DNA of 64,000 bases from an uncultured Christensenellaceae bacterium (GTDB lineage Bacteria; Bacillota; Clostridia; Christensenellales; Pumilibacteraceae), in assembly GCA_910587595.1 (NCBI GenBank), contig CAJULQ010000005.1, forward strand, positions 883 to 64,882, in the 5' to 3' direction. The position numbers were made by a program, and so were the translations under genes. How positions within the stretch are numbered: position 1 is the stretch's first letter; each line of letters starts with the position of its first letter. Below the pieces are notes generated by a model that searched no databases, had not been told where the DNA came from, and was given only the letters and a program-made list of their open reading frames with translations. Below are positions 117-42,792 of this stretch, in pieces.

Positions 117-145
117 TTGACGGGGCGGCCGTTTTGTTGTATAAT
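117..145 (+). promoter_or_regulatory. sigma-70-type promoter ahead of the YbjN-like pair
   Basis: TTGACG (117-122), 17-nt spacer, TATAAT (140-145). A GAGGAG RBS precedes the ATG at 184. Confidence 0.55.
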
Positions 146-183: not shown

Positions 184-651
184 ATGACGGCGGCAGAACG
201 GGCAGACAGCGTGTTCGGGTGCTATTGCGAGTATCTGGACGGCAAAGGCTTGCGGTATAAAAAAGACGCGGATGAGCGCAAGATCCTGTTGCAGATGACG
301 GGGGCGAATCTTCCCGTCACGCTTTTGTTGAGCGTGGAAGAGGACAACGAGCGAACGTTCGTGTTTGCCAAACTGCCGTTCGACGTATCGCGGGAAAAGC
401 GGGTGGATCTTGCCATGGCCGTTACGTATATCAATGCCGTGTTGGCTACGGGCACGTTTTGCGTAGACGCGGACGGCGGCTATGTCAGCTACGAATCCAA
501 CGAGCTGTATACGGGATTGCACGGCTTTACGGCCGCCTATGCCGAACGGGTGATTGTTTCGGCCTTTTCGGCGGTGGACATGTTTAACGACAAGCTGTTT
601 GCGGTAAACAAGGGATTGCTTACCGTAAAAGAGTTTGCGGCGCAAATGTAG
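184..651 (+). CDS. YbjN-like (T3SS-chaperone-like fold) protein, paralogue 1
   Basis: 155-aa ORF with RBS. The pattern resembles the YbjN family (conserved LPF..V..EK, N..L..G.F core). Paralogous to the next ORF. Confidence 0.6.
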   Translation: MTAAERADSVFGCYCEYLDGKGLRYKKDADERKILLQMTGANLPVTLLLSVEEDNERTFVFAKLPFDVSREKRVDLAMAVTYINAVLATGTFCVDADGGYVSYESNELYTGLHGFTAAYAERVIVSAFSAVDMFNDKLFAVNKGLLTVKEFAAQM

Positions 652-665
652 GAGGGATAACGGAA

Positions 666-1133
666 ATGACCGACGGCGAACGCGCCACGGCGGCTTACAA
701 CGCCATTGTGCGCTTTATGACGGAAGCAAAACTGCACTACGAAAGCAACGAGGACACGCGCGAGATCTTTGTGACCATCACGGGCGCAGACTTTCCCGTG
801 TCGTTGCTGTTTACGGTAAACGAGCCGCTGCAACGGGTGGAAACGTATTGCGAACTGCCCTTTGCCGTGCGCAAAGAAAAGGCGGTGGACATGGCCGTTG
901 CGTTGGCCGCCGTCAACGCGCGCATTGCCTACGGCAAGTTTTGTTTGTATTTCGATAAGGGATTGTGCACGTTTGAAAACACCGAGTATATTACCGATCT
1001 CGAAGGGTTTTCGGCCGCGTACGGCCGCGCGATCGTGGCGCCCGCCTATGCCATTGCAGACGAATACAACGACAAGCTGTATGCGCTCAACAAAGGGCTG
1101 TTGCCGCTGAAAGAGTTTGCCGCGAACGTTTGA
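666..1133 (+). CDS. YbjN-like protein, paralogue 2
   Basis: 155 aa, the same length as the upstream ORF. Clearly paralogous to it (shared ..NDKL[FY]A[VL]NKGLL..KEFAA.. C-terminus). Confidence 0.6.
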   Translation: MTDGERATAAYNAIVRFMTEAKLHYESNEDTREIFVTITGADFPVSLLFTVNEPLQRVETYCELPFAVRKEKAVDMAVALAAVNARIAYGKFCLYFDKGLCTFENTEYITDLEGFSAAYGRAIVAPAYAIADEYNDKLYALNKGLLPLKEFAANV

Positions 1134-1152
1134 CGGGCGGCAAACTTTTTTT
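1117..1152 (+). terminator. terminator/attenuator-like hairpin between the YbjN pair and the ESCRT-like genes
   Basis: 7-bp stem TTGCCGC/GCGGCAA (1117-1123 / 1137-1143), 13-nt loop, then T7 run (1146-1152). Overlaps the stop codon of the upstream CDS. Confidence 0.4.
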
Positions 1153-1251
1153 CACGGCGCAAAAATTTAATCGAATTTTTAACTTTCTTTTATGCGGGCG
1201 TAAAGTTTGCATTTTATAATGATTTGTCGAAAGAACGGGGAGGATCGCACG

Positions 1252-3072
1252 TTGTCGAAAAAGGATATCGAAAAGAAAATGGCGGTGCGACGCACGCGCA
1301 ACAGGCTGGCGTCTAATCTCGACACGTTGGAAGAGAACAAACAGCAATACATAGAAAAGGCCAAGGCGGCGCGCGCCAAGGGCGATAAGCACGTATACAG
1401 TTTGGCGCGGAGCGGGTTGGCCGCCACGGTGGCGCAAAGCAAACGCACGCGCGAAATGTTGTTGCACATAGACATCACCTCGCAAATGCGCGATACGGGC
1501 GCGGTCACCGAAGAATTTCTCACGGGCATGGAAACCATTTTCAAGCGCCTTTCCAAGATCAACAAAAGCGTGGATATCAAGAAGGCGCGAAAAGGCTTGC
1601 GCTCGGCCATCATGGGCATGGAAACGGTGCAAGCGCAATTGGACGGCATGCTGGAAGAATCGGAAGATACGTTTGCGGAATTGGCCGGGCAAACGGACAG
1701 CGTGACCGATAAAGAGATAGACCGCTTGCTCGGCCTCAGCGCCGCCATCGACGAAGAAGAGGCGGTGGGCGCGGCGGTAGACGAGATACTGCGCGAAAGC
1801 CAACCGAGCGAAACAAGCGAACGGGCGTTTGCGGCGGCAACGTCCGCGGGCGGCGCTACCCCCTTTTTCGACGATCGATCGGACGAACCCCGCACGGCAC
1901 CGCCGCAACGTTCGAGCGGGCGGCAATATGCATTGCCCGATATAGAACTGCTTAGCGAATACGGCCGCGACGAGAGCGCGCGCGAAACCAACGAATGCGC
2001 GCTCGAAGAGGACGCGGCGGCCGTGGAAAAGGTGTTGGCCGAGTTGGGCGTGCCGGCCAAAGTGTCCGAACGCGTAACAGGGCCTGCGTTCTCGCGGTTG
2101 GAAATGGCCATGCCGTCGGGGTTGTCGGTGCAAAAGATAGACGCGCTTTTATCCGACATTGCCATGCGGTTAGGTAAGCCCGCGCGGCTCGAAGTGCCAA
2201 TCCCCGGCAAAAACGCGTTCGGTATCGAGGTGCAAAACGTGCGCCGCGAAACGGTGGGGCTAAAAGAGTTGATCTTGTCCGAGGCGTTCGAAACGTCGGG
2301 CGACGGCATACGCTACTGCTTGGGCGCGGACATAGACCGAACGCCCGTTGTAAAAGACTTGACGGGCGCGCCGCACATGTTGGTGGCGGGGTGCACGGGC
2401 AGCGGCAAGAGTTGCTTTTTGCATGCCATGCTCGTGTCCATGCTGTATACATACACGCCCGACAAATTGCAGTTGGCCGTTGTGGATCTCAAGCGCGTGG
2501 AAATGGCGGCTTATAACGGTGTGCCCCATCTAACGGGCGGCAAAGTGGTAGACACGGACGAAGAGGCGCTCGCCTTGTTCGAACGGTTGGCCGACGAAAT
2601 GGAACGCCGATACACGCTTTTGTTGGGCGCGCATTGCCGCGATGTGAAAGAATACAACCGCACGGCGGCGCAACCGTTGCCGTATATCGTGGCGGTGGCC
2701 GACGAATACGCCGACATCTCCACGGGGCCGCTTTGCAAGCCGTTCGAGGCGGTGCTCAGAAAGCTCAGTCAAAAGTCGCGGGCGGCGGGCATCCATTTGG
2801 TGTTGGCCACCCAACGCCCCAGCGTAGACGTGGTGTCGGGCACGCTCAAAAGCAATTTCCCCACGCAAGCCGCTTTCCGCGTGGTGCGTAAAGAGGACAG
2901 CCGCACGGTGCTGGCGGGGCAAAGCGGCGCCGAACAGCTTTTGGGCAACGGCGATATGTTGTTTGCCGAGGCGGGCGTGGCGGGCTTGCGCCGACTGCAA
3001 GCGCCCTATGTTTCGAGCGAAGAAGTGCGGCGGGTGTGCGACTATTGGCGACGCGTCGCGGGGAGGGCGTAA
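1252..3072 (+). CDS. Snf7/ESCRT-III-like N-terminal domain fused to an FtsK/SpoIIIE-type DNA translocase motor (no TM segments, no gamma domain)
   Basis: ORF open from 1207. The likely start is TTG 1252, 8 nt after GGAGG, which matches the N-terminus of the paralogue at 3076. The N-terminal ~190 aa are paralogous to ORFs 3076 and 5493 (YSLARSGLAATVAQS vs YRLARSGLAMAVRQS). The C-terminal half carries FtsK motifs: YALPDIELL, GPAFSRLE, IPGKNAFGIEVQN, Walker A AGCTGSGKS, Walker B VAVADEYAD, AAGIHLVLATQRPSVDVVSG, GAEQLLGNGDMLF. Confidence 0.8.
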   Translation: MSKKDIEKKMAVRRTRNRLASNLDTLEENKQQYIEKAKAARAKGDKHVYSLARSGLAATVAQSKRTREMLLHIDITSQMRDTGAVTEEFLTGMETIFKRLSKINKSVDIKKARKGLRSAIMGMETVQAQLDGMLEESEDTFAELAGQTDSVTDKEIDRLLGLSAAIDEEEAVGAAVDEILRESQPSETSERAFAAATSAGGATPFFDDRSDEPRTAPPQRSSGRQYALPDIELLSEYGRDESARETNECALEEDAAAVEKVLAELGVPAKVSERVTGPAFSRLEMAMPSGLSVQKIDALLSDIAMRLGKPARLEVPIPGKNAFGIEVQNVRRETVGLKELILSEAFETSGDGIRYCLGADIDRTPVVKDLTGAPHMLVAGCTGSGKSCFLHAMLVSMLYTYTPDKLQLAVVDLKRVEMAAYNGVPHLTGGKVVDTDEEALALFERLADEMERRYTLLLGAHCRDVKEYNRTAAQPLPYIVAVADEYADISTGPLCKPFEAVLRKLSQKSRAAGIHLVLATQRPSVDVVSGTLKSNFPTQAAFRVVRKEDSRTVLAGQSGAEQLLGNGDMLFAEAGVAGLRRLQAPYVSSEEVRRVCDYWRRVAGRA

Positions 3073-3075
3073 CGC

Positions 3076-3648
3076 ATGGGACTTTTTAAGAGTGCGGAAG
3101 AAAAACGCATGGAAGAAAAGATGTTGGTAAAAAAGGCCGTGGGCAATATCAAGCGGTATATCGAGCGGTTGGAAGAGGCCAAGCAAAAGTATATAGAAGA
3201 GGCCAAGCAAGCCAAACAGCACGGCATACCGTCGCAATACCGTTTGGCGCGGAGCGGGTTGGCCATGGCGGTGCGACAAAGCCGCGTGGCGGAACAGTTG
3301 CTACTCAATCTCGAACTCAACCGCCAGACCAAAGACGCGGGCGAGGCCACGCGCGACTTTGTGGCGGGCATGCAAACGCTTGGCAAAGAGATCACGGCGC
3401 TCAACGGCCGCATACACGTGGCGCGGGCACAAAAGAACATGCGCACGGCGCTCAGCCAAAGCGGGCGCATGCAAGAAAATCTGGAAGGCTTTATGGAAGA
3501 GAGCGAGTTTTTGTTCGGCGAGGCGGCGAGCGACACGGGCTTGGAACGCGAGTTGGACGGCATGATCGACCGCGAGTTGCGGGCGGACGAGTCGGACACG
3601 GCGGCCATGGACGCCGAGATCGACGAAATGTTGGGACGGAATTTGTAA
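3076..3648 (+). CDS. Snf7/ESCRT-III-like protein (PspA/ESCRT-III superfamily)
   Basis: 190 aa, all-helical. It has an MGLFKS N-terminus, a basic helical-hairpin region, and an acidic C-terminus ending in the MIM-like DAEIDEMLGRNL. Starts 4 nt after the upstream stop. Confidence 0.6.
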   Translation: MGLFKSAEEKRMEEKMLVKKAVGNIKRYIERLEEAKQKYIEEAKQAKQHGIPSQYRLARSGLAMAVRQSRVAEQLLLNLELNRQTKDAGEATRDFVAGMQTLGKEITALNGRIHVARAQKNMRTALSQSGRMQENLEGFMEESEFLFGEAASDTGLERELDGMIDRELRADESDTAAMDAEIDEMLGRNL

Positions 3649-3692
3649 AGACCCCGCGCGGGGAGAACGGATAAGCAAGGAGAACGAGAAAA

Positions 3693-4454
3693 ATGGTGGA
3701 CTACAGAATAACCAAACGCGACGACGCAATGATCTGGAAGATCGACGTGCGCAAACCCGACAAGGACATGCGGCTCTTAGTAGACGACGGCTTGGTGGCG
3801 CTTGCCTTTGCGGACGGCACGATGTTGGGCGAATTTCGCGCGGGCGAGAAAAAGCTTTTCAACGAGGGCGGCAAAGCGGGCAAAGCGTATAAAAAAGCGC
3901 ATTTCGGCTTTTACGTTTTCAACCGCGAAAAGGCGGCGCCCGTTAAGTGGGGCGTGGGCAAAACGCCCGTGCCGTATGAAGACCGCAAGTTGGGCGGATT
4001 GGTGCTCAATGTGTGCGCCTACGGCCATTGCGACGTGATGATCCATGACGCGGTGCGACTGTGGGAAAAATTGCCCGCCGACTACACCGCCGACAACGTG
4101 GTGCAACCGCAAGAGATCGAGGCGTTTATCCAACGCGAAGTGATCGCGCGCATCACGCCCATACTTTCCAAAAAACTCAACGAGATAGGCGATTTCACGC
4201 GCGTGACGGCGGCGGCCGACACGCTGAGCAAGGGGCTGACGTATGCTTTGCCCGACCTCGAAAATTTGGGCTTGCACGTAGACAAAGCGGTGATCGAGGG
4301 CATAGACTTTACCGACGAATCCAAAGAGATCATTGAAAAGCACCGCGCCGGCAAGGTGGCCAAGATCGAATCGGAGATCGTGCGCGAGCAGTCGGAACAG
4401 ATCAAAAACATTCTTACGGCGCTGAACGCGGGCGACGGCAACAAGGAGGAATAA
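3693..4454 (+). CDS. SPFH/Band-7-like protein of the YdjI (COG4260) type
   Basis: 253 aa. The N-terminal beta-rich region (..DDAMIWK...LLVDDGLVALAF.DG..GEF..G...) and the ..VKWG.. segment resemble B. subtilis YdjI-family SPFH proteins. It lacks the C-terminal Zn ribbon. Confidence 0.55.
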   Translation: MVDYRITKRDDAMIWKIDVRKPDKDMRLLVDDGLVALAFADGTMLGEFRAGEKKLFNEGGKAGKAYKKAHFGFYVFNREKAAPVKWGVGKTPVPYEDRKLGGLVLNVCAYGHCDVMIHDAVRLWEKLPADYTADNVVQPQEIEAFIQREVIARITPILSKKLNEIGDFTRVTAAADTLSKGLTYALPDLENLGLHVDKAVIEGIDFTDESKEIIEKHRAGKVAKIESEIVREQSEQIKNILTALNAGDGNKEE

Positions 4455-4458
4455 AGCC

Positions 4459-5496
4459 ATGGCAACCTTTTCACCCGAATTCGTGCGCGAACAGTCGCGC
4501 CAGAACCTAAGCGACATGTCGCGGCTGGTAGACAGCTTGTATCAACGCGCCGACACCCCCGAAGCGCGCGAGGCGTTGGCCACGATGAGCAAAGCGGTTT
4601 CTTCGTTAAAGCCCGTGGGCAGCGTGCCGCAAGTGCTCGACGTGGAATCGCAGATCAAAAAAGTGCTTTCCGACTACAACGCCAATTTAGACGCCGACCG
4701 CGCCGAGGGCATAGACAAGGCCACCGTTTCCATTATTCGCGAGTTGGTGGCTACGCGCAAAAAAATGTGCAACTGCACGGTAGACGCCGACTTAAAACGC
4801 GGCTTTAAGTCGTATGCCAAAGCCAACAAGGGCACGGGCACCAAAAAGGAATTGAAGGCGGCGTATACGGTGCGCTACCAAGAGGCGATGGCCGAGGTGG
4901 ACGGCTACGTGCGCGAGGCCAAAACGCTCGACCAGTTGGTGAAAAGCTATCGACTGCGCACGCGCGAAATGGGCAAACAGCGCGAGCTGGACGAGCTGAA
5001 CAAAACGGTGCAGACGTTGGCCGCCCGTTACAAAAAGAGCACCGACCAAGCCGAGCGCGACCGCCTAAACGCCGAGTATCAAACCTTACTGCGCAAGAAG
5101 AACGCGCTGGACGCGGCGCTCATGGGTTACAAAGACGCCATGCGCAACGTGGAAACGGTGGAATCTTTGTTGAGTCAGCTTTCGGCACAAGCGGAAACGG
5201 CCGAGATCGACAGCATCTCCGCCGAGGATTTCACGGCGTTGGCGCAGTCGGTAACGGCGGGCATCAAAAAAGCGCGCGGCCGCAACGCCGCCATCGACGA
5301 GGCGTACGGCGCGGTGGAAAGCGCCAACCAAACCATGTTGCGTCGCGCGGGCGAGCGCATGCAAGCGGGCGAAACGTTAGACAGCGTGATCTTGGCCGAG
5401 CAAAACGCCGGCTTAGACGCCATAGAGGGCGTGGCCTCCGCGGCCGAGGCGCCCACCTTGGCGGCGCTGGCCGATAACCTCGACGGGGAGATGTGA
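4459..5496 (+). CDS. coiled-coil protein of unknown function
   Basis: 345 aa, long heptad-like Glu/Lys/Arg/Ala-rich helices, AAGGAGG RBS. Translationally coupled to both neighbours. No family recognised. Confidence 0.7.
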   Translation: MATFSPEFVREQSRQNLSDMSRLVDSLYQRADTPEAREALATMSKAVSSLKPVGSVPQVLDVESQIKKVLSDYNANLDADRAEGIDKATVSIIRELVATRKKMCNCTVDADLKRGFKSYAKANKGTGTKKELKAAYTVRYQEAMAEVDGYVREAKTLDQLVKSYRLRTREMGKQRELDELNKTVQTLAARYKKSTDQAERDRLNAEYQTLLRKKNALDAALMGYKDAMRNVETVESLLSQLSAQAETAEIDSISAEDFTALAQSVTAGIKKARGRNAAIDEAYGAVESANQTMLRRAGERMQAGETLDSVILAEQNAGLDAIEGVASAAEAPTLAALADNLDGEM

Positions 5497-5498
5497 AC

Positions 5499-6074
5499 AT
5501 GTTCGGAAGAAAGAAACGAAAACAGCCCGCCGTGGATCCGCGCGAGCAAGTGGAAAAAACGGTAGAGAATTTGGAGGCGTTCGTCAGAAAGGCCGAAACC
5601 AAGCGGCGCGAACTTCTTTCCAAAGCCAAAACGGCCAAAGCGCGCGGCGACAAAATGAGTTTCAATATGGCGGTCAACGCGCTGCGCATGGTCATGCAAC
5701 AGCAAAAGCAAGCCGAGCAAATGTCGCTCACCATGGGCATCGTAATGGACACGCGCGACGTGCAAGGCATGCTGGGCGAGTTTTTCACCAGCATGAAAAC
5801 GCTTTGCATGCAATTGGGCGAAGTACCCGATTTCAAAGAAATGCAAAAGGCGGCGTCCGAATTCAACCGCAACATGAACAAGATGAACGAACAAACCATG
5901 ATGATGGACGAGTTCATGACGGCCATGAGCGAAAGCATGGGTAATATGGATTTCGAGGGTGTTTCCACCAACGACGAGATCGGCAAGATGATCGAGCGCG
6001 AACTGGCCAACGAGCTGGACGCGGAAGAGATCGCCATCAACGAGCAGTTGGAGGCCGCCAAAAACAGACTGTAA
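5499..6074 (+). CDS. Snf7/ESCRT-III-like protein (CHMP2-like layout)
   Basis: The ORF track starts at GTG 5493. ATG 5499 gives MFGRKKRK, like the eukaryotic CHMP N-terminus (..LFGRRK). By eye the layout can be laid alongside my recollection of human CHMP2A along its length. Acidic C-terminus ends in the MIM1-like EEIAINEQLEAAKNRL. Confidence 0.65.
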   Translation: MFGRKKRKQPAVDPREQVEKTVENLEAFVRKAETKRRELLSKAKTAKARGDKMSFNMAVNALRMVMQQQKQAEQMSLTMGIVMDTRDVQGMLGEFFTSMKTLCMQLGEVPDFKEMQKAASEFNRNMNKMNEQTMMMDEFMTAMSESMGNMDFEGVSTNDEIGKMIERELANELDAEEIAINEQLEAAKNRL

Positions 6075-6107
6075 AAATAGTAGCAACGAGAGGGGACGCA
6101 AAAACAC

Positions 6108-7196
6108 ATGGCGAATAACCAAGCACTGCTGTACGACACCTACACCGATTATTACAACCGCGCCATGCGGGCCAAAAATGCGGGCGAAAACGACAAAGCG
6201 CGCAAGTATTTTCTATTGGCGGCCGAAACGTTGCGCGATCTGGCGCAAGTGAGCGAGGGCGAACTCAAAAAATCGCGCTACCGCACGGTGAAAAAGCTGA
6301 TTGCGGCGGCCGAAAGTTTGGCGCCGCAAGCGCGGGTGGCGCGGAGCGGTGCGGATCGCAGCGACAAAGCGGCGCGCGCGCCCGACGATCCCACCGACGA
6401 ATACGACCTCGACATAGCGTCGCCCAACGAAAAAGTATCGTTCGACGATATCATAGGGTTGCAAAATGCCAAAACGGCCATACGCCGCATGCTGATACAC
6501 CCGCTCAACAATCCGCAAGCCTACATAAAATACGGCCTAAAGCCGGGCGGCAACATTTTGTTGGAGGGGCCTCCCGGCACGGGCAAGACTACGTTTGCCA
6601 AGGCGGCGGCGTGCGAGATCCGCTTGCCCTTCGTGGTGGCGAACTGTTCGGCTTTGGTGGATTGCCTGATCGGCAACACCGCCAAAAATATCGACAAGCT
6701 GTTCGGCGAAGTGCGCCGCTTGGTGCGCAACCGCAAAACGGCGGCCATCGTGTTTTGCGACGAGTTCGACGAGATCGCCCGCTCGCGGGGCGGCGACAGC
6801 AAAACGGCCGACGAGGCGGTGCCCGCGCTCATTCGGCAGCTCGACGGGTTTAATACCGACAACGCCAACATCGTGGTGATCGCGGCCACCAACCGCAAAG
6901 ACACTTTAGATAAAGCGGTGCTCAGCCGATTTACAAAAAGCATATTTATTCCGCTACCTACCCGCGACGATCGCAAAAAGATCTTTGCGGCCAAGCTTAG
7001 GCGTATCGACGCCGAGGACTGCGCGGTCATCGATTTCGACGCGTTGGCCGACGAGAGCGAGGGCATGAGCGGGCGGGACATCACCCACGTGTGCGGCGAG
7101 TTCGTGAACGTGTTGGCCGAGCGCGACGCGGGGCTTACGCGAATAAACGGCACGCACACCGACGTTTTGCGCGAGTTTGTGGCGCAAAAACGCTGA
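6108..7196 (+). CDS. MIT-like domain + classical AAA ATPase (Vps4-like)
   Basis: The N-terminal ~75 aa form a helical, MIT-like segment (YYNRAMRAKNAGENDKARKYFLLAAETLRDLAQ). The AAA module has GPPGTGKT, IVFCDEFDEI, sensor-1 ATN and an SRH (LDKAVLSRF). The layout resembles Vps4. Confidence 0.7.
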   Translation: MANNQALLYDTYTDYYNRAMRAKNAGENDKARKYFLLAAETLRDLAQVSEGELKKSRYRTVKKLIAAAESLAPQARVARSGADRSDKAARAPDDPTDEYDLDIASPNEKVSFDDIIGLQNAKTAIRRMLIHPLNNPQAYIKYGLKPGGNILLEGPPGTGKTTFAKAAACEIRLPFVVANCSALVDCLIGNTAKNIDKLFGEVRRLVRNRKTAAIVFCDEFDEIARSRGGDSKTADEAVPALIRQLDGFNTDNANIVVIAATNRKDTLDKAVLSRFTKSIFIPLPTRDDRKKIFAAKLRRIDAEDCAVIDFDALADESEGMSGRDITHVCGEFVNVLAERDAGLTRINGTHTDVLREFVAQKR

Positions 7197-7209
7197 CCGA
7201 GAATAAGAC

Positions 7210-10200: not shown

Positions 10201-10833
10201 ACGCTTTTGTGCGTGAGCGATCGGCTGGTCACGGCGGTGCATTTGCCCACGGGCAAAACGCGCGGCCGCGTCATGCCCGCGCGCGTTACGAGCGTGCCGT
10301 GCGCCGCGGGCAACGGGTTTGTGTTGGCCGACGAACAACATGTGTATGCGCTCGACACTCGCTTGCAAGGCGAGGCGGTGCACGCGTTAACGGGCGGCAA
10401 CTACGCGCAAGGGCAAGGCAAGATCTGCCGCAACCGTATCGTTGGCTACAAGGGCACGGCCTATTGGGTGGAGCGCACCGACGCCAACGTTTGTATCGGC
10501 ATGTATAACGGCGTTATGGCGGGCAAGGCGGCCGTGCCGCGGCGCATAGCCGACTTTTTGCAAACGCAACCCGTGCTGTACGGCGATACGCTGTACGCGG
10601 GCGGCAACACGCACGTGATCACGGCGCGCATTTCGTCGGTGTCGGGTGAATGGACGTTCGGTATAGGGGACGATGTGGGCGGCAAATACGCCGAGTTGGC
10701 GGTGATAGGCGGCGCGTGCTATATAAACGCCATGGAAGGCGCCTACGGGCGGCTTCGGTTGCGCGCCGTAGCGGACGGCAAGGCGATCGTAACGGATATA
10801 GACAGCGGAGGCATATATGCCGCAAGAATTTGA
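7210..10833 (+). CDS. large multidomain protein: N-terminal Zn-ribbon, helical (TPR-like) region, BspA-type LRRs, C-terminal beta-propeller-like region
   Basis: 1207 aa. CPFCGG...CAYC at the N-terminus. LRR_5-like repeats (VTAIGDGAFRGA..VTAIGDGAFAHS..LRLPDSVVRLGANPF). A Gly/Tyr/Val-rich, repetitive beta-strand region at the C-terminus. Confidence 0.6.
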   Translation: MIEYVSKACPFCGGTQIDRAGDAYICAYCLQPLDVSSGVLSDGYNKLASFNFAGAAAFFRSMTASAGAEAFYGLFLAKYKIAENKQGGQTRPVVLGYYPASFEQNEDYRQVRRLCESNASLLTKLDRIEQARAQSTGSEPPVDVLVFCDGGGKEGAQRFADAVSACGRKALVCEQTPSLAVLRAAQAAYGFFDDLQAIERLLCGNARYFPLLENARTELTGAKRPIKIECSFAVPDALKGGAATFADISAAAEVRRLHALLGGRTAVPSLPLRFLSAPVTKRRASTAHAATDVTRLQRLLYNGDFAGALRETERAADGTASAAVFWCGFLACARARDDSALVASPNENAFTAEALGYASEALYRCADHAAAQPYLRVLTDTALRCIDRGFLAFAARAVDTAFCYDYADDYADKLLARLHAAHGGLPAAEAFALGKKIIDKLSAEQDASRLRFALQLTDDALRAGEWALADDCIESLLDRFGTEKELYLRKWLISNRVCDTAALRAVPYPRLGENFAFCLAVLPPESRATLLKDTFNGLCRAAAADGFAPREAALGEALALGRALSLFAAPVFGATDYCAVGDLALREKDFESAAAYFAGALRCDGRSYRAHWGALCAALQCENDRRLEECATPIDRAGDCFENAYTTALGRDEAFIARIEGVRARQRETVRKDGHVFRPSDFVIDNGCVRKYTGEGTPNVFVSGVTAIGDGAFRGADAVSVLVDEGVTAIGDGAFAHSALRSLRLPDSVVRLGANPFVGCDDLVSLTAAGKIRVENGGVYRGDRLAAFVPSLAQSDAFIALRSTSSIADRAFYGVHGGSIDLGNAALDPCALYACEGASIKAARGAAAARTGESVTGCDRIENGKIVSAGKARWASLYGNGGNNMAADGNVLRDGNVRVEKIADTPRLQSGILCKNDRLIYAHENALYVVPAAGGRAERLAAVGECTGTGVLWNEYIVQPVETQTGAALCFVAPNGKTEYTVSLPERLTRPLCLSGDTLLCVSDRLVTAVHLPTGKTRGRVMPARVTSVPCAAGNGFVLADEQHVYALDTRLQGEAVHALTGGNYAQGQGKICRNRIVGYKGTAYWVERTDANVCIGMYNGVMAGKAAVPRRIADFLQTQPVLYGDTLYAGGNTHVITARISSVSGEWTFGIGDDVGGKYAELAVIGGACYINAMEGAYGRLRLRAVADGKAIVTDIDSGGIYAARI

Positions 10834-13150
10834 AATCAAATGCGTGATAAGCGAAGAAGGCGTGCCGGGCGGCTTGAAAATAGACGCCACGCCCAAAAGC
10901 TACGCCAAATACAAAGCGCTGTTCGAGGCGGCGCGCGAGGTGCGCAAGATCGACGATTTTCGCGAACTGCGCGTGCCCTTTTACCCCGCGTTTCGGCCGT
11001 TCGAGTACCAGCGCGAGGCAGTGCTCATGATGTTGTCGCGTTTTCGCGGCAAAGGCATTTTCGGCGATCAAGTGGGGCTTGGCAAAACGGTGGAAGTGGG
11101 CATGACGGTGGCCGAATACGCCGCCCGCGGCGCGGTGCAAAACGTGCTGTTGCTGTGCCCCGATAAATTGGATTTCCAGTGGGAACAAGAAATGCGCGAA
11201 AAATTTTCGACGCACTTTACCGCCCGCCACGTGCGCACGTTCCGCGAAATGGAAACGAGCCGAACAAACGGCGTTACCATGTTTTTGATGTCGTTTGGGG
11301 CGCTTTTATCCGAGATCCGCGGTTTGCGCGAACGTTTTTCGGACGACGTGCGCCGCGAGGAAGATTGGGTGCTTTCCGAGGGGTTCAAAGCAGAGCGCGC
11401 CGCCGACTACGAAAAGCGCAAACGCGCGTTAGCCAAAGATAAAAAATTGTGCGATCGGTTGGGCGCCGAGATCGACGCGCACTACTTGCAAGTGTTTGAT
11501 CGCTACAACCGTTTGTGGCCGTCTATCCACATGTTGGTGATCGACGAGGCGGACGCGTTGCTGTCGGTAGATCCTACCCGCACGTTGCAGATCTACACGG
11601 TGGCGGAGCACCTCGGCAAGCGCAGCGACTTGCCGTATAAAATACTTTTGTCGGCCACGCCCATTCGCCGACAGCTAGCCGACGTGTATAAACTCATGCG
11701 CATCGTGCGCCCCGAACAGTTTCGCGATAAGAACGATTTTATACGCAACTACTGTTTCGGCAAAGCGCGGCTCAATGATTTTTACGGCGAGGAGATCCGC
11801 CAGCTGAAAGGGCTGATCGATCAGCTGTTTACGCGCAACCGTTTAACGAGCGCCACGGTGCAACGGTCTTTGCAACCGCTCACGGTGGCCGAAGTGCTTG
11901 ACGTGAACCTCAAAAATTTTGCCGCGCCCGATATGGAAGAACGGGTGAAAGAGGCGGTGATCGACGGCGTGGCGTTCGGCGAGAGCGACCCCGCCCGCGT
12001 GCGCGCGCTGGTGCGTGAGAATATGGATGCCTATGCGCGCGATACGGGACAGTCTTGGACGGAATACGTGCGCACGGTGCTCATAGATCCCGACCGCTCG
12101 CCCGTGCGCATCACGCGGGAAAAAGACCGCGCGTTCGCGCAAAGTTTGTTGCAACGCGTGGGCGATCAAAAGGGCGCGGAGGCGGACGCCTTGCGGTTTA
12201 CGTGCGAGGACTACACCATTCCGTCTAAGCGCGGCCACCATATCCGCTACCGAGAGAGCAAGCGGGCGTATGCCGATAAAGACGCGTTGGAAGACGCGCT
12301 CACGGCGCGGTACATGCGCAAAGCGCGGCGCGAAAACGACTATGCGTATTCCGACGAGGGCACGATCGCCTACTACGATCGCGCGCAGATAGAGTGCGAG
12401 GGCAAGTATGCGGAGTTCGACCGCCTCGTTAACGAGTTGCTGATCGACCGCAAAGCGGTGGTGTTTTCGGCCGCCAAACAGCGCGACGTTCTCATGCGAT
12501 TGGTTAACGACGTGCAAAAGGGGCGGGCGCTGGCGGGCGGCGGCGACCATGCCGGTTATCTCAAATTTCGCAGCAACGACGCCGCCTATAAAAACGCGGT
12601 GTATTTTGCGGTGAACGGCGAAGAAAAGGGCTTTAACATGCAGTTTTGTTCGCACCTAATCATTACCGATCTGCCGCACGACCCCAACTTGGTAGAGCAG
12701 ATCGTGGGGCGCGTGTCGCGTATCGGTCAGCACGACCCCATGCACGTGTACGTGTTCACGCCCACGGGATCGCTCGAATACAGTTTGTATTTGTTTTACA
12801 ACGATATTTTGCATTTGTTTTCCGATTGGGACGGTGACAACACGTTTATCATCGGGGGCGCGGTGGCCGCCTTTTTGGAGGACGCGCCCGACGTGCACCG
12901 CGAACTGTTGCGCCGCTTGGGCGCGTCGCGCAACGCGTACGGCGAAACGGCCGAAGTGGGCTTTGCGCCATTGGCCGAGTATTTGTGGGAGCAATACCAA
13001 GCGGGATATGCCATCGGATCGTTCGAAGAATATGCGCCGTGGGCGGCGTTTTGCGAGCATGTGCGCGAGAGCATACGCTCGTTCAAAGAATTGGTAAAAG
13101 AGATGGGCGAGCAAGAAATGTTTGCCGCCGACGAACAAGAGTTGTTATAG
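10817..13150 (+). CDS. SNF2-family helicase/ATPase
   Basis: Motifs GDQVGLGKT (I), LLLCP (Ia), VIDEADAL (II), LLSATP (III) and QIVGRVSRIGQ (VI). Overlaps the upstream CDS by 17 nt. Confidence 0.85.
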   Translation: MPQEFEIKCVISEEGVPGGLKIDATPKSYAKYKALFEAAREVRKIDDFRELRVPFYPAFRPFEYQREAVLMMLSRFRGKGIFGDQVGLGKTVEVGMTVAEYAARGAVQNVLLLCPDKLDFQWEQEMREKFSTHFTARHVRTFREMETSRTNGVTMFLMSFGALLSEIRGLRERFSDDVRREEDWVLSEGFKAERAADYEKRKRALAKDKKLCDRLGAEIDAHYLQVFDRYNRLWPSIHMLVIDEADALLSVDPTRTLQIYTVAEHLGKRSDLPYKILLSATPIRRQLADVYKLMRIVRPEQFRDKNDFIRNYCFGKARLNDFYGEEIRQLKGLIDQLFTRNRLTSATVQRSLQPLTVAEVLDVNLKNFAAPDMEERVKEAVIDGVAFGESDPARVRALVRENMDAYARDTGQSWTEYVRTVLIDPDRSPVRITREKDRAFAQSLLQRVGDQKGAEADALRFTCEDYTIPSKRGHHIRYRESKRAYADKDALEDALTARYMRKARRENDYAYSDEGTIAYYDRAQIECEGKYAEFDRLVNELLIDRKAVVFSAAKQRDVLMRLVNDVQKGRALAGGGDHAGYLKFRSNDAAYKNAVYFAVNGEEKGFNMQFCSHLIITDLPHDPNLVEQIVGRVSRIGQHDPMHVYVFTPTGSLEYSLYLFYNDILHLFSDWDGDNTFIIGGAVAAFLEDAPDVHRELLRRLGASRNAYGETAEVGFAPLAEYLWEQYQAGYAIGSFEEYAPWAAFCEHVRESIRSFKELVKEMGEQEMFAADEQELL

Positions 13151-13160
13151 GAGTCAAGCG

Positions 13161-15233
13161 GTGTCCGACAAAGACAGAGTAAACGAACTGAATACGCGAT
13201 TGGGCGGCATGCGGGCGCGGCGCAACGTGTCTACGCTCGACAAGAACGTGCGCGCCATCGAACGGTTGGTGAACGCCGCGGCCGATCGGTCGGTGGGGCT
13301 TATTTCGGTGTACCGTCCGCTCGACGAGGAGGAAAAGCGCGCGCTGCAACCGCTTGAGCGCGACGAGATCGCCAACGCGTATCACGTGGAAACGGCGGGG
13401 GACAACCGCGTTCGCTACATAACCTATAAACCGCGGGTGGAGCAAGGCGCGGGCGGCGCGCTCGAGCACGTGAATCGCTCCACGCCGTTCGTGCAGTCGT
13501 TGCTCGAAAAGGTGAGCAACGAATATTCGTTTTTGTATTGCCACAGCAAAGTGCGTGCGTGCTCGGTGCCTTTGCCGCCCGCGGCAAGCGGATTTGCGGT
13601 GCAAGCGGGCGAAACGGAGCACCTCGAAGGCAAAAACAAATACGAGCTGTTTTTTCTCATAGAATGCAAAGACAACATAGACGCGGGCGAGCGTATCGGC
13701 AATATCATAGACAGCGTGCTGTTAGACGTAGACGGCGAGAGCGGCGACTTTTTCGCGCGCATGTCGTACGCCTCGCTCACGCACGAGGACGAAGAGGACG
13801 AGGAGGATATGCCGTTTGTGGAGCCCGCGGTGCAAAGCCAGCTCAACGACATTATTTTGCAGATCCGCGAATTGCCCAAGGTGCGCGAGCGCATCGTCGA
13901 CTTTTTGGCGGGATGCGAGCAGAGCGAACTGCACGCCTTTCTCGCCGCGCGCAACGAGGCGTTCGTGCGCATGCGCGAGGTGTCGCCCCAAGATATCAAC
14001 GCGTTCAATTCCACCGTTACGTGCAGAGTATTGCCCATCGGCGTGTTTTTGAACGCGATAGACAACGACCGCATTCCCTACACGGTAACGGGTAAAAACG
14101 GCGAACGCGCTGTGTTTTGCACCGAGCTAAATCCCGCCGCGCCCTTTTCGGCGCACGTGTGCCCGCACTGCGGCGCGGCGCTCACGCCCGACAACGGCGT
14201 GTTGGCGGCGTCTACGCGCGAGGGATACCGCGTGGGGTGCGAAAAGTGCGCGTCGCGTTGCGCGCACAAAAACTGCAAAACGTACGCTTTCGATTCGCAA
14301 GGTTGCGCGGTGTGCCACAAGATCTTGTGCCCTACGCATTCGTTGCCGAGCGCGGATTCGTTGCACTCGCTGTGCCGCGAGTGCGCGCGCGTGTTCCGCG
14401 ATCCGTCGGGCGCGCCGCTTGCGCCGTCGGATGCGGCGGTGCGCGGCGAAGAAGAGTTTTACGTGCGCGACAACGTGGAACGGCTTGGCAAAACGGGCGC
14501 GCTCAACATGTTCAAAACGGTCAAACTGCTACGCAAGTCGCTGTGCGTTTTGTGTAAGACGGCGGCCGATCGGCGCGCTTATTATCTCAAGAACGAAACG
14601 GCCGATTGCCCGACGTGCGGCGAACACTATTTGAAAACGGCGCTCAAAAAAACGCGCGACACGGGCGAGAAATTGTGCGATAACTGCCGCTTGGATTGCG
14701 CGTGCGGCAACGTGGTGGCCAAGAAAAACGCCCACATGTGCGCCGCCGACGGTTGCGATCGCGGCTTTTGCGAAAAGTGTTTTTCGGCGCGGCAAACGCC
14801 CAAGGGCTACGCGGCCGCGGTAAAAAGAATGGGTCAGCGCAAGGCGGCCACGCAAGCGGGCGACGCGTTGCTGTGCAACGAGCACGTGGCGGTGTGCAAA
14901 GTGTGCGGCGTTGCTCTGCCCAAAAACGAGTTGCGCGTTTGCCCCGATTGCGGGGGCGGATATTGCGCATCGTGCGAGCGCGACGGCAAATGCCGCACGT
15001 GCGCTGCGGCCGATACGGTCACGGTCGAAAACTACAAAAGCGTGTCGTCGCGCACGCGGCGCATGCGGTTGAACGCGTTGCCGCTGCGCGATCGCTTGGG
15101 CAAAACGGCGGTGATCGAAGACCACGAAACGGTGGTGTTCGTAACGCTGCCCACCGTGCCGCTGTTGCGCCTTTCGGCCGTAAAACGCGTGCACCATAAA
15201 CTCACGGGCAAAACGGAGGTGATCCGAAAATGA
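13161..15233 (+). CDS. cysteine-rich protein with multiple zinc-ribbon-like units
   Basis: ORF open from 13122. The likely start is GTG 13161, 7 nt after AGGAG. At least 12 CxxC dyads counted by eye in the C-terminal two thirds. No catalytic motif recognised. Confidence 0.65.
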   Translation: MSDKDRVNELNTRLGGMRARRNVSTLDKNVRAIERLVNAAADRSVGLISVYRPLDEEEKRALQPLERDEIANAYHVETAGDNRVRYITYKPRVEQGAGGALEHVNRSTPFVQSLLEKVSNEYSFLYCHSKVRACSVPLPPAASGFAVQAGETEHLEGKNKYELFFLIECKDNIDAGERIGNIIDSVLLDVDGESGDFFARMSYASLTHEDEEDEEDMPFVEPAVQSQLNDIILQIRELPKVRERIVDFLAGCEQSELHAFLAARNEAFVRMREVSPQDINAFNSTVTCRVLPIGVFLNAIDNDRIPYTVTGKNGERAVFCTELNPAAPFSAHVCPHCGAALTPDNGVLAASTREGYRVGCEKCASRCAHKNCKTYAFDSQGCAVCHKILCPTHSLPSADSLHSLCRECARVFRDPSGAPLAPSDAAVRGEEEFYVRDNVERLGKTGALNMFKTVKLLRKSLCVLCKTAADRRAYYLKNETADCPTCGEHYLKTALKKTRDTGEKLCDNCRLDCACGNVVAKKNAHMCAADGCDRGFCEKCFSARQTPKGYAAAVKRMGQRKAATQAGDALLCNEHVAVCKVCGVALPKNELRVCPDCGGGYCASCERDGKCRTCAAADTVTVENYKSVSSRTRRMRLNALPLRDRLGKTAVIEDHETVVFVTLPTVPLLRLSAVKRVHHKLTGKTEVIRK

Positions 15234-17638
15234 CGCTTCCTTTTGTGCGCAAACATACAAACGCCGCCGCGGCGGATGTGCACAATGCGGCCGATAAGCA
15301 TGCGGCGTATGTGAACGCTCGCTGTAAAACGGTGCTTTCCAACATTTCTTTTTACGCGGCGTTCGCGCTCGATATCGTGTTTTTCGCCATCATCTTGCAT
15401 GCGGGCTACACGCTGTTGTTGCAGTCCTTTTTCGGCACGGCGTTTGTGCTCGAATGCATTACCGTTCTCTTTTTGTTGCCCGTGCCGTTGTTGCAAGTGG
15501 GCATTGTAAAACGCAACGCGGTGCGGTGCGCGGTGTTTTCCGCCGCCACCGTGATCCAAACGGTGTGGGCGTTTTATATCGCGTCGTACGGCGGCTTGGG
15601 GCCGTTCGGTATGTTGGCGGCGGCGCGCGCTCTACTGTGGCTGTGTGCATTCTTTGTTTGCCGCGTTGGAGTGGGCAGCGTGTTCGTGGCGGCGGCGGGC
15701 GTTGCGTTGGCGCTATTGTCGCTTTTGGGCGCCAACGCGCTGTTCGGCTTTTCGTTTGCGGCGCGGCCGTTGCGGTTTACCTATGTGCAAGCCGACGGCA
15801 CGCACGGCGCGGGATATGCCGTCACGTCGGTGTTATACGGTTCGCGCGATAACGTGAAAATACCCGCCGTGTATCGAGGCAAACCGGTGGTGGCCATGCA
15901 AACGGGGCGCGAGGAAATCGTGTGCATGCAAACGCTTTGCTTGCCCGACCGCGTAACGTTTGTGGAGATACGCGCGCCGCATTTGCTCGACTGCACAGTG
16001 GCGGCCGACGGCGTGCGCTTTTCCGAAAATACGTTTTATTGCCCCAACTTGTGCAAACTGACGTTTGCGGGCAACGACTTGCCCATCGATCTGCCCCCGA
16101 ATATTCCCAATGCGTACGCCGCAGATTTCGTGTTGGCCGTGCCGCGCGATAAAATCGACGAGGCGTTGGCGCGCGACGATTTTGCGCACGTGCGCGAGCA
16201 TCTTGCGCCCGCGGTGGGCGATAACGAGGGGTATATTGTGTATTACACCGATTGCACGTTGCCCGAAGGCGGCGCGCCGCAAGAAGTGTTCACCCAGCCC
16301 GTAACGGTAACGCAAGGCGACGGCTTTGTCGCGTTGCCCGCGCCCGATCTGTCCGATCTCGGCTATGCGTTCGATGGGTGGTATACCGACCGCCTTTACA
16401 CCCACCGCGCCGAACGCGTGCCCGCCGCGGCCGGTACGCGGCTATATGCGCGCTATTATAAGCTGTATACCGTTTCGCTGTATGCCGACAAATACGCCGC
16501 CCAACCGCAAACGTCGTTTACCTATCATTACGCAAGCGGCGAAGTGCGTCTGCCTGCCGACGGCGTGGGCAAAAAAGAGGGGTATGCCTTTTGCGGTTGG
16601 TTTGCCAAAAGCGACTACACTGTGGAAGCGCCGTACACGGCAACGTGGTCGTTTCCGTCGGAAACGATGGGGCACCGCGCCTTTTATGCGGTGTATAAGA
16701 AAGAGTATGCCGTCACACTGTATACCGACGGCGGCCGCGTGAACGGGGATATCCCGTCTACGTATCACGAGTGGTCGGAAACGGCGGGTTTGGCGCCCGC
16801 CGAAAAAGAGGGGCACACGTTTATGGGTTGGTACACCGACCCGCAGTTCGATTTTCCCATTCATAGTTTGCCGCCCATAGACGAGGACGGAGAGGTGTGG
16901 CAAAGCGACGTGGACTTGTACGCCAAGTTCAATAAAAATTACGCCATAGCCTACGAAAACGCCTATACGTTGCCCTCCAACGCGCCCAAACAGTATCATT
17001 GCGACAGCAACCTAAAACTGCCCACGCCCGCGCGCCAAGGGTATCGGTTTGCGGGTTGGTTCGATAACAACGCGTATACGGGCGAGGCGTTGCAAGTAAC
17101 GCCCCGCGAGAATGCGCGCGATCTGCGCTTATACGCCAAGTGGGCGCCCGTTACCTACACGGTGCGCTACGATAAAGGCGATTATTGGGATCCCACGGGC
17201 AGCGTGCCCGACAGCGTACTTACGTTTAACGAGCACGGCGCGCTGGCTATGTGCGGGTATGAAAAAAAAGGGTACTCGTTTGTAGGCTGGGAGATCGACG
17301 GCAAGATCTATGCGGAAGGGCAAGAGGGCGTTTTCAATTTCGCGTCTACGCACGGCGCGGTGGTCAAGGCCAGCGCGCAATGGCGCGCGCATGAATTTAC
17401 GCTGGTGTTTGTGCCCGACTGCGACGACGCCGAGGGCGCCATGCCCGCCGTGCAGTGCTCGTATTTGCAGTATTACGTGATGCCGTCGTGCACCTTTACC
17501 CGCGAGGGCTACCGCTTTTTGTTTTGGTCGATATACGGCACGGTCTGTCGCGAGGGCGTTGGGTGCAGTTTGGCGTGGGAGGCCATGCAAGAAGACGGCG
17601 CGACCATAGAGGTGCGCGCCGTTTGGGAGAAAATATAA
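15230..17638 (+). CDS. polytopic membrane protein with extracytoplasmic LRR and Listeria-Bacteroides (Flg_new) repeats
   Basis: About 5-6 hydrophobic helices in the first ~190 aa. Six G[YH].F.GW repeat cores follow (GYAFDGWYTD, GYAFCGWF, GHTFMGWYTD, GYRFAGWF, GYSFVGWE, GYRFLFWS). ATGA overlap with the upstream stop. Confidence 0.7.
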   Translation: MTLPFVRKHTNAAAADVHNAADKHAAYVNARCKTVLSNISFYAAFALDIVFFAIILHAGYTLLLQSFFGTAFVLECITVLFLLPVPLLQVGIVKRNAVRCAVFSAATVIQTVWAFYIASYGGLGPFGMLAAARALLWLCAFFVCRVGVGSVFVAAAGVALALLSLLGANALFGFSFAARPLRFTYVQADGTHGAGYAVTSVLYGSRDNVKIPAVYRGKPVVAMQTGREEIVCMQTLCLPDRVTFVEIRAPHLLDCTVAADGVRFSENTFYCPNLCKLTFAGNDLPIDLPPNIPNAYAADFVLAVPRDKIDEALARDDFAHVREHLAPAVGDNEGYIVYYTDCTLPEGGAPQEVFTQPVTVTQGDGFVALPAPDLSDLGYAFDGWYTDRLYTHRAERVPAAAGTRLYARYYKLYTVSLYADKYAAQPQTSFTYHYASGEVRLPADGVGKKEGYAFCGWFAKSDYTVEAPYTATWSFPSETMGHRAFYAVYKKEYAVTLYTDGGRVNGDIPSTYHEWSETAGLAPAEKEGHTFMGWYTDPQFDFPIHSLPPIDEDGEVWQSDVDLYAKFNKNYAIAYENAYTLPSNAPKQYHCDSNLKLPTPARQGYRFAGWFDNNAYTGEALQVTPRENARDLRLYAKWAPVTYTVRYDKGDYWDPTGSVPDSVLTFNEHGALAMCGYEKKGYSFVGWEIDGKIYAEGQEGVFNFASTHGAVVKASAQWRAHEFTLVFVPDCDDAEGAMPAVQCSYLQYYVMPSCTFTREGYRFLFWSIYGTVCREGVGCSLAWEAMQEDGATIEVRAVWEKI

Positions 17639-21972: not shown

Positions 21973-22002
21973 ACAAAAAACGGCCCGTTGGGAGGTAAAG
22001 GT

Positions 22003-24177: not shown

Positions 24178-24235
24178 AGTAAGGCGACTATACAACGCAT
24201 TGCGTGCAACTAATACGATACGATGAGGGCATGCC

Positions 24236-26422: not shown

Positions 26423-26435
26423 GGAGAAAACTATA

Positions 26436-42349: not shown

Positions 42350-42792
42350 TGAAAATGCACGATCTTTCTCCCGCCGCGGGCGCCAGAAAAGCGCCCAAAC
42401 GGTTGGGTCGCGGTATCGGTTCGGGTACCGGCAAAACGAGCGGCAAGGGTCATAAGGGGCAATGGGCGCGTAGCGGCGGCGGTGTTCGCCCCGGTTTCGA
42501 GGGCGGCCAAATGCCGCTTGCCCGTCGACTTCCCAAAACGGGTTTTGACAACCGCTACAAAAAAGTTTATTCCATTGTGAATCTCGACGATCTCAACAAG
42601 TTCGACGACGGCGCCGTGGTGAACGCCGAGGCGCTCAAAGCGGCGGGGATCTTAAGCAAGATCGAGCCGTACGGCCTCAAAGTGTTGGGAGACGGCGAGC
42701 TCACCAAAAAAGTTACCGTTCAGGCAAAGAAGTTCTCGAAGTCCGCGACGGAAAAAATCGAGAAAGCCGGCGGTAAAGCAGAGGTGCTCTGA
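42349..42792 (+). CDS. rplO: 50S ribosomal protein L15
   Basis: [21 protein letters not shown] motif. Confidence 0.97.

Follow-up and report, generated by a model that had tools for sequence, protein, structure and literature searches.

A Candidate Bacterial ESCRT-III-like Machine with an MIT-AAA ATPase and a Fused DNA Translocase in Clostridia

A stretch of 64,000 nucleotides from an uncultured Christensenellaceae bacterium of the gut (contig CAJULQ010000005.1; below, the window) carries an operon of twelve genes, g1 to g12, at positions 184-17638. We conclude that this operon probably encodes a bacterial ESCRT-III-like machine, in which a membrane-bound copolymer would tether a DNA translocase and be remodeled by an ATPase that joins an MIT-like domain to an AAA domain (MIT-AAA). 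For this expanded operon we favor a damage or defense response directed at membrane and DNA, the role being the least certain element of the proposal. ESCRT components beyond the distant PspA/Vipp1 branch have been identifiable in archaea and not in bacteria (PMC10936438), and a Vps4-like ATPase is apparently absent in bacteria according to a 2025 review (PMC7619361). The present analysis follows up an earlier note on this DNA, which was made from the sequence without database searches.

Results

All twelve open reading frames that the earlier note had placed on the plus strand are present, each confirmed at the coordinates given below. Three of their products contain a helical domain of about 190 residues. 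Two are free proteins: g4 (190 aa; 3076..3648), which starts with MGLFKS and has a C-terminal amphipathic helix, AMDAEIDEMLGRNL, and g7 (191 aa; 5499..6074), a second and more divergent subunit that starts with MFGRKKRK. The third domain is the N-terminal part of g3. These domains are paralogous: the N-terminal ~190 residues of g3 are 35% identical to g4 (E 7e-33) and g7 is 26% identical to it (E 1e-10), and a hidden Markov model of the ESCRT-III-like family recovers g3 at E 4e-53 and g7 at E 1e-45. An exhaustive HMMER search extended the family to 529 clusters at 50% identity, whose members are free proteins of ~190 aa and N-terminal domains of larger proteins; a word-indexed homolog search returned only close relatives of g4, so the wider family came from HMMER.

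Taken singly, g4 and g7 match the Pfam Snf7 family weakly (E 0.03) yet over nearly its full length, residues 15-177 of g7 aligning to model positions 3-157. Snf7 is the top Pfam family in 18 of 18 close relatives (best E 1.8e-5). Among 105 diverse members it is the sole recurrent Pfam family (19 of 105 at E<=0.01, best 1.4e-9), and PspA_IM30 is absent from the Pfam families listed for them. Comparison with PDB sequences followed the same course. Single-sequence and close-family profiles of g4 and g7 gave nothing useful, and CHMP proteins were reached only by the profile of 105 members. This profile matched CHMP2A at 1.3e-5 in a collinear alignment (9-142 versus 6-142), CHMP3 at 3.6e-3, and then also CHMP1B and CHMP1A; no PspA or Vipp1 chain was matched by it. 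When the family was aligned with hhalign to five CHMP/Snf7 sequences, the probability was 96.6% (E 6e-10, 144 columns), against 0.8% for PspA+Vipp1; the identity of both reference sets was confirmed by Pfam.

The predicted structure and the composition of these proteins point in the same direction. An AlphaFold 2 model of g4 has helices at residues 7-49, 52-109, 115-150, 155-172 and 176-189, which is the layout expected of ESCRT-III. In a Foldseek search with this model, ESCRT-III-superfamily structures made up 22 of the 23 best matches, with CHMP2A/3, Vipp1, Asgard ESCRT-IIIB, CHMP1B, CdvB and Snf7 on top. The basic N terminus and acidic C-terminal tail that the note had described are confirmed by net charge, which in the three domains is +6 to +9 in residues 1-60 and -11 to -16 beyond residue 125 (by successive region, +6, +4 and -14 in g4; +9, -1 and -11 in g7; family means +7.4, +2.2 and -11.4). 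A MIM1-like pattern, h-x3-h-x2-h-[KR], occurs in 35 of 108 C-terminal tails, compared with 5.4 +/- 2.3 in shuffled tails, and the g4 tail AMDAEIDEMLGRNL is a near variant of it. The evidence (Pfam, PDB profile, hhalign, Foldseek, charge and tail pattern) accumulates as relatives are added, and we conclude that the g3 N terminus, g4 and g7 are ESCRT-III homologs of the Snf7 branch and not of the PspA branch. The proposal of three paralogous Snf7/CHMP-type domains is thus borne out by paralogy, Pfam, hhalign and the modeled layout, and profile searches place the proteins in the Snf7 family rather than in unrelated coiled-coil families.

The gene that follows g7 encodes the MIT-AAA ATPase. g8 (362 aa; 6108..7196) begins with an MIT-like three-helix bundle (~6108-6323), continues through a disordered linker, and ends in a classical AAA cassette (~6420-7196). 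Its AlphaFold 2 model has a mean predicted local distance difference test score (pLDDT) of 89.6, and the N-terminal helices, residues 2-24, 28-47 and 52-70, reach 95-98. The best natural PDB matches of a profile of the g8-family N termini were the Sulfolobus Vps4 MIT domain (E 0.002) and CdvC (0.0028), with the human VPS4B MIT domain lower in the same list. Aligned by hhalign to the MIT domains of Vps4/CdvC, these N termini gave 81.7% (E 1e-5) with all three helices covered, and Pfam MIT itself was found in 6 of 29 members of the family. The NCBIfam CdvC model aligns residues 5-329 of g8, N terminus included, although the model match stops at 315/370 and the score, 147 bits against a cut-off of 650, does not reach equivalog level. 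The AAA domain matches Pfam AAA (PF00004) at E 5e-33 and AAA_lid_3 weakly. The family is invariant at Walker A, Walker B, sensor 1 and one Arg finger, and pore loop 1 reads Y/F-I/V-G in 83 of 105 relatives.

Other identities for g8 were considered and rejected. SpoVK scores just 2e-6, and g8 is clearly no SpoVK/CbbX-type AAA protein; its N terminus, which the CdvC model covers from residue 5, is MIT-like. IetA reaches 123 bits against a cut-off of 510, and EccA 29.5 bits (NCBIfam). Lack of the "PG" insertion from the second region of homology was dropped as a marker of Vps4, katanin and spastin, because the SpoVK outgroup does not have the insertion either.

The third element of the system is a DNA motor. 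g3 (606 aa; 1252..3072) joins the ESCRT-III-like domain (~1252-1806) to an FtsK alpha/beta motor, with FtsK_alpha at 1933-2238 (Pfam E 6e-16) and FtsK_SpoIIIE at 2260-2826 (E 3.5e-41); its translation shows Walker A and B motifs. Against the NCBIfam DNA translocase FtsK it scores 252 bits, the cut-off being 1566, and neither a gamma (KOPS-reading) domain nor a transmembrane region was found in it. We take g3 to be a predicted relative of the FtsK motor domain and not a canonical FtsK, with the ESCRT-III-like domain replacing the membrane anchor.

Fusions of this kind recur. Motors that elsewhere share a protein with the ESCRT-III-like domain are FtsK, RuvB (in some cases together with NERD or TnsA-like nucleases) and AAA proteins bearing Vps4_C; in P0159, P0181, P0214 and P0241, for example, the ESCRT-III-like domain is followed by a RuvB-like motor and then by a NERD or TnsA-like nuclease domain. 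In locus L012 (8257-9927) the ESCRT-III-like domain is fused to a classical AAA with a Vps4_C-type C-terminal helix, which would place substrate-like and Vps4-like parts within a single protein, and in L013 (7142-8952) it is encoded beside a classical AAA that bears Vps4_C. The Vps4_C helix of the L012/L013 AAA scores 25 bits, above the Pfam cut-off of 21.3. A second MIT-like N-terminal domain is carried by AAA proteins of the SpoVK/CbbX type (AAA_lid_6) in L011 (10461-11663), L012 (6483-7643), L015 (15176-16438), L017 (15808-16938) and L016 (8811-11531). The L016 protein, of 906 aa, combines the MIT-like domain, a SpoVK-like AAA and a full FtsK alpha/beta motor. This repeated attachment of DNA motors, through either an ESCRT-III-like or an MIT-like domain, is the strongest contextual argument that MIT domains and ESCRT-III-like proteins cooperate, and it suggests that DNA handling belongs to the function.

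We also asked how far the arrangement is conserved. A locus search with the AAA alignment returned 80 loci, most of them unrelated actinobacterial or methanogen AAA genes; L008-L018 alone were informative. Of 19 distinct loci of other Clostridia (L004-L007, from the same species, are counted as one), 15 have the MIT-AAA gene beside ESCRT-III-like genes. Across Clostridia the core unit is a trio: the ESCRT-III-like domain joined to a DNA motor, an ESCRT-III-like protein that is free, and the MIT-AAA. The neighborhood is conserved at two levels, the core across Clostridia and the whole block in L088: the idea of a twelve-gene unit holds for close relatives, the only genomes in which the full block is kept, while broad conservation is limited to the three-gene core.

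The loci fall into three types. In type 1, der-plsY is followed by the ESCRT-III-like-FtsK fusion, the free ESCRT-III-like gene and MIT-AAA, and then by spoIVA (L003, L009, L010) or murA-ftsQ-ftsA-ftsZ (L093), with neither in L001. The protein of L009 is without the FtsK part, and the L093 insertion spans 8017-15962, between der-plsY and murA-ftsQ-ftsA-ftsZ. This division or sporulation neighborhood recurs in several lineages of Clostridia. In type 2 (L011-L013, L015-L017, L091, L092) the trio has RuvB, a Vps4_C-bearing AAA or an FtsK motor. Its extra genes encode a helix-turn-helix (HTH) regulator, a trypsin-Sel1 protease, a Band_7 protein, a coiled-coil protein of ~500 aa, a SpoVK-type AAA with the second MIT-like domain and, in many cases, an SNF2 helicase. 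Type 3 is the twelve-gene form of the window and of L088, where it is complete, with 85% AAA identity and different flanking genes.

A related module in L089 (1-11140) consists of TIR_2/Sel1 and Zn-ribbon+TIR_2+LRR_5 proteins followed by HTH, trypsin-Sel1, Band_7, 538-aa coiled-coil and MIT-AAA proteins. An ESCRT-III-like gene was not detectable in this module. The 538-aa coiled-coil protein has a basic N terminus, MWFFNRKKK.

The remaining genes of the operon encode putative accessory proteins. g1 (155 aa; 184..651), which is kept in L088, belongs to the YbjN family (Pfam E 6e-7), and g2 (155 aa; 666..1133) is its paralog (41% identity, E 2e-45). The YbjN fold resembles that of type III secretion chaperones, and we propose that g1 may act as a chaperone for the ESCRT-III-like subunits. 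g5 (253 aa; 3693..4454) is an SPFH protein of the Band_7_1 type (Pfam E 2e-8) in which no hydrophobic or transmembrane segment is predicted; SPFH genes recur in expanded loci. g6 (345 aa; 4459..5496) is a coiled-coil protein without a significant Pfam family, and its position matches that of the ~500-aa coiled-coil protein that follows the SPFH gene in related loci. g6 was rejected as a fourth ESCRT-III-like protein (hhalign 0.2%), and the coiled-coil proteins of ~500 aa in L014 and L089 have no detectable similarity to ESCRT-III-like proteins or to g6.

Downstream of the ATPase gene lie four larger genes. g9 (1207 aa; 7210..10833) has an N-terminal Cys4 zinc-ribbon-like motif, a helical region, BspA-type LRR_5 repeats (Pfam E 9e-8) and a beta-rich C terminus, without a transmembrane segment; its relatives adjoin the system in L001, L014, L017 and L088. 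g10 (777 aa; 10817..13150) is an SNF2-family helicase or translocase (Pfam SNF2-rel_dom E 1e-16) that most resembles the defense helicases DrmD, BrxH and DpdE, below thresholds (DrmD 111 bits versus 610). L011, L088 and L091 have SNF2 genes as well. g11 (690 aa; 13161..15233) is Cys rich, with several zinc-ribbon-like motifs and a weak zf-AN1 match only. g12 (802 aa; 15230..17638) is a membrane protein with about five hydrophobic segments (residues 34-163) and extracellular Listeria-Bacteroides (Flg_new) repeats in four stretches (E 1e-29). Both g11 and g12 are kept in L088. Pfam thus matches the operon partners that had been named from the translations: YbjN, FtsK, Band_7_1 (SPFH), SNF2-rel_dom and the Flg_new surface repeats.

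From g1 to g12 the intergenic distances are 14, 118, 3, 44, 4, 2, 33, 13, -17, 10 and -4 nt, a spacing that suggests translational coupling of the twelve genes. The g2-g3 gap of 118 nt falls outside the range of 3-45 nt or overlaps given in the note, and the other gaps and overlaps are short, as it had said. A candidate sigma-70-like promoter, TTGACG-17-TATAAT (117..145, plus strand; a consensus match alone, at 11/12 positions), lies ~40 nt 5' of g1. It is sigma-A-like, and all twelve codirectional genes lie downstream of it. A divergent XRE regulator is located upstream of the operon. g3 starts with a TTG at 1252, 8 nt downstream of GGAGG, which gives 606 aa as in the gene calls of other assemblies, and the g11 start was called at 13161 (GTG, 690 aa) and not at 13122.

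Independent assemblies of the window's species (L005, L006, L007) end 0.5-4 kb upstream of g1; these breaks may reflect a repeat or variable region beside the operon. Elsewhere in the window, a MACPF/perforin-domain gene (20596-21972; Pfam 7e-13) precedes a tandem array of three paralogous genes for fused ABC_tran+FtsX transporters (21988-24177, 24236-26422 and 26436-28631). The GC content of 20596-28631 is 0.45-0.51, compared with 0.54-0.64 in the operon. A SipL (SPOCS-domain) gene at 57214-58719 implies that the host is an endospore-former, and SecA and SecY genes (30319-33021 and 42792-44102) lie between the operon and the SipL gene.

Discussion

In summary, these analyses lead us to propose that the operon encodes Snf7-type subunits, one of them fused to a DNA translocase, together with a dedicated MIT-AAA. 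Several results weigh against this reading. The g4 model has a pLDDT of only 70, and none of its Foldseek matches is better than a weak E of 0.025. The MIT domain is moderately supported (PDB E ~2e-3, hhalign 81.7%, Pfam MIT 6/29). In the AAA domain, g8 keeps one Arg finger and not two as in Vps4, and pore loop 1 is a nonaromatic L-I-G in the operon's own subclade (22 sequences, including P0024-P0037). Vps4_C has no match in g8, whereas the Vps4, CdvC, spastin and katanin controls all match, and the Vps4 beta-domain is missing. In a neighbor-joining bootstrap tree, the g8 family forms its own clade (89%) outside Vps4, katanin and spastin; this tree is distance based, with few references, and does not resolve the deeper position of the clade. 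Foldseek of full-length g8 puts p97, FtsH, PAN, Rpt and Msp1 on top and does not favor Vps4 over p97, FtsH, PAN and Msp1. g6 and g9-g12 have no assigned role. Finally, a search with PADLOC 2.0/NCBIfam matched no known anti-phage system, giving generic similarity only (IetA, DrmD, BrxH, DpdE, SspH), and tblastn of g4 against plasmids and phages gave no match, so that the idea of a defense function draws on context only.

The outcome for g8 is a distinction between architecture and descent. On its sequence, g8 resembles Vps4 in architecture, since a classical AAA cassette with intact catalytic residues comes after an MIT-like domain, and it is not an ortholog of Vps4 or CdvC. The earlier comparison with Vps4 therefore stands for the domain order and fails for orthology, in view of the missing Vps4_C and the separate clade. 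The phylogeny that the note had suggested likewise places g8 outside Vps4/katanin/spastin, although by score it does not belong with SpoVK/CbbX either; and the suggested structural comparison recovers ESCRT-III structures for g4 but does not separate g8 from other classical AAA proteins.

How might such a machine work? The g3 N terminus, g4 and g7 would use their basic, amphipathic N termini to copolymerize on the cytoplasmic membrane, at its inner face, and the YbjN-like pair g1/g2 would keep the subunits in solution. Recruitment or scaffolding of the polymer could fall to the SPFH protein g5 and the coiled-coil protein g6, much as YdjI is reported to bring PspA to the membrane. These scaffold and chaperone roles would parallel the reported partners of PspA (PMC11237479; PMC10936438). 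Incorporation of g3 would set a hexameric double-stranded DNA translocase at the polymer, and DNA might then be driven through, or out of, a neck or lesion in the membrane as constriction or sealing by the polymer proceeds. The MIT domain of g8 would dock on the MIM1-like C-terminal helices of the subunits, and the ATPase would thread these through its pore, remodeling and recycling the polymer as Vps4 does.

For the twelve-gene operon, we lean toward damage or defense because its flanks vary between species and a divergent XRE regulator lies upstream, because its SNF2 helicase is nearest to defense helicases and it also encodes Zn-ribbon/LRR and Cys-rich proteins, and because the LRR_5 protein beside the related module in L089 also carries TIR_2 and sister loci carry proteases and nucleases. 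For the minimal three-gene form beside ftsQAZ or spoIVA, the type 1 gene context makes a function in division or sporulation more likely.

The most serious alternative keeps the machine and changes its cell-biological role. The operon would encode an abscission device for division or sporulation, acting in septal or engulfment fission; its FtsK motor would clear or pump the chromosome, and the accessory genes would serve as regulators or adaptors. The minimal trio does lie between der-plsY and spoIVA or murA-ftsQ-ftsA-ftsZ, the host is a spore-former by its SipL gene, and the candidate promoter of the operon is sigma-A-like. Moreover, FtsK and SpoIIIE work at closing septa, and engulfment fission has been linked to DNA pumping (bioRxiv 10.1101/2021.10.08.463650). 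However, the window's operon sits outside that housekeeping context, with flanks that differ between species. Genes of the SNF2, LRR and Cys-rich kinds are part of it, and in its relatives there are domains that typify conflict systems (trypsin-like, TIR, NERD and TnsA-like). Function, moreover, can be read only weakly from gene neighborhood alone. We regard this role as the less likely one for the operon.

Far less probable is a PspA-type envelope-stress module made of the helical polymer, the SPFH protein and chaperone-like proteins, with FtsK, AAA, SNF2 and the later genes as unrelated neighbors. [quoted passage not shown] However, the helical proteins match Snf7 and not PspA_IM30, and one helical domain is covalently joined to the FtsK motor. 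In 15 of 19 loci the MIT-AAA is a direct neighbor, and RuvB or AAA motors occur repeatedly in fusion with the ESCRT-III-like domain. What the two systems share is membership of the ESCRT-III superfamily, the company of SPFH (Band-7) and chaperone-like proteins, and a plausible part in membrane repair; the Clostridia proteins differ in lying in the Snf7 branch (96.6% versus 0.8%) and in having a dedicated MIT-AAA partner.

Type VII secretion uses an FtsK/EssC-type ATPase, an EccA-like AAA, chaperones and small helical-hairpin substrates. A type VII-like or conjugation-like export system, with an FtsK/EssC-type coupling ATPase, an EccA-like AAA whose N terminus is a helical repeat, YbjN chaperones and helical-hairpin substrates, would account for the co-occurrence of an FtsK-family ATPase with helical and chaperone-like proteins, for weak NCBIfam matches to EssC/EccC (94-95 bits) and EccA (29.5 bits) and for the surface repeats on membrane protein g12, but it is the least probable reading of all, as g3 is far better as an FtsK (252 bits, with FtsK_alpha present and one ATPase domain only, against 94 bits for EssC, where the cut-off is 778), none of the twelve products has a Pfam match to EssA/EssB/EsaA or EccB/D/E, the helical proteins are ~190 aa long and match Snf7, and sister systems use RuvB, a DNA motor.

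The proposed ESCRT-III-like machine can be set beside systems already described. Its subunits resemble those of Cdv, Asgard and eukaryotic ESCRT in their basic N-terminal half, acidic C-terminal half and putative C-terminal MIM1-like helix, and some ESCRT loci of archaea likewise include an SPFH protein (PMC10936438). In contrast to Cdv or ESCRT-III+Vps4, the host is bacterial, and the ATPase is without the Vps4_C helix and beta-domain and falls outside the Vps4/katanin/spastin clade. No CdvA, ESCRT-I/II or ubiquitin components were seen in the Clostridia system, and we found no described counterpart, in archaeal or eukaryotic ESCRT, of the ESCRT-III-like fusions to FtsK and RuvB. With FtsK/SpoIIIE, g3 shares the alpha/beta motor and, we infer, action at a closing membrane, whereas it has an ESCRT-III-like domain instead of an N-terminal transmembrane anchor and no detected gamma domain.

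The nearest bacterial parallel is a group of MIT+Vps4-like ATPases from Verrucomicrobia and other phyla (PMC11237479), and in both cases the MIT-AAA is thought to act near the membrane. In those loci, however, an unrelated TPR-6TM protein stands in for snf7 and the ATPase has been attributed to transfer from archaea, whereas the Clostridia system has Snf7-like partners and its AAA forms a clade of its own. Also described in that paper and its supplement are a Clostridium PspA that comes with a double AAA protein and a Snf7 that is divergent and anchored in the membrane. The view that bacteria normally lack a Vps4 partner is thus in line with the 2025 review but has to allow for these ATPases that are known, without a Snf7 partner, in some phyla. 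Among defense systems, the best library match of g8 is IetA and those of g10 are DrmD/BrxH/DpdE, but the scores are far below cut-offs and the partner genes of IetAS and of DISARM/BREX/Dpd are absent. In the full-text literature, for which journal coverage is incomplete, we found no description of the gene set, and PADLOC gave no match to it either, in agreement with the earlier impression that it corresponds to no described system.

FisB has been described as the sole dedicated membrane-fission machinery known in bacteria (PMC8274934). A bolder version of our proposal, which we advance tentatively and would rate below an even chance, is that a genuine Clostridia Snf7-type ESCRT-III machine with its own MIT-AAA disassemblase physically couples DNA translocation by FtsK or RuvB to membrane scission or sealing. 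Its minimal form would then be a second dedicated bacterial membrane-fission system, for division or sporulation, and its expanded forms would be derived systems of defense or repair.

If the proposal is correct, the pairing of ESCRT-III with an MIT-AAA would not be an archaeal or eukaryotic invention but would be older than thought or exchanged between domains, and a widespread Clostridia family of Snf7 type with an MIT-AAA partner would revise the view of ESCRT as archaeal and eukaryotic. The repeated fusion to DNA pumps would represent a direct mechanical link between DNA movement and membrane cutting or sealing. The system would also offer simple bacterial material for studying ESCRT-III mechanics, and new candidates for sporulation, division or defense in abundant gut anaerobes.

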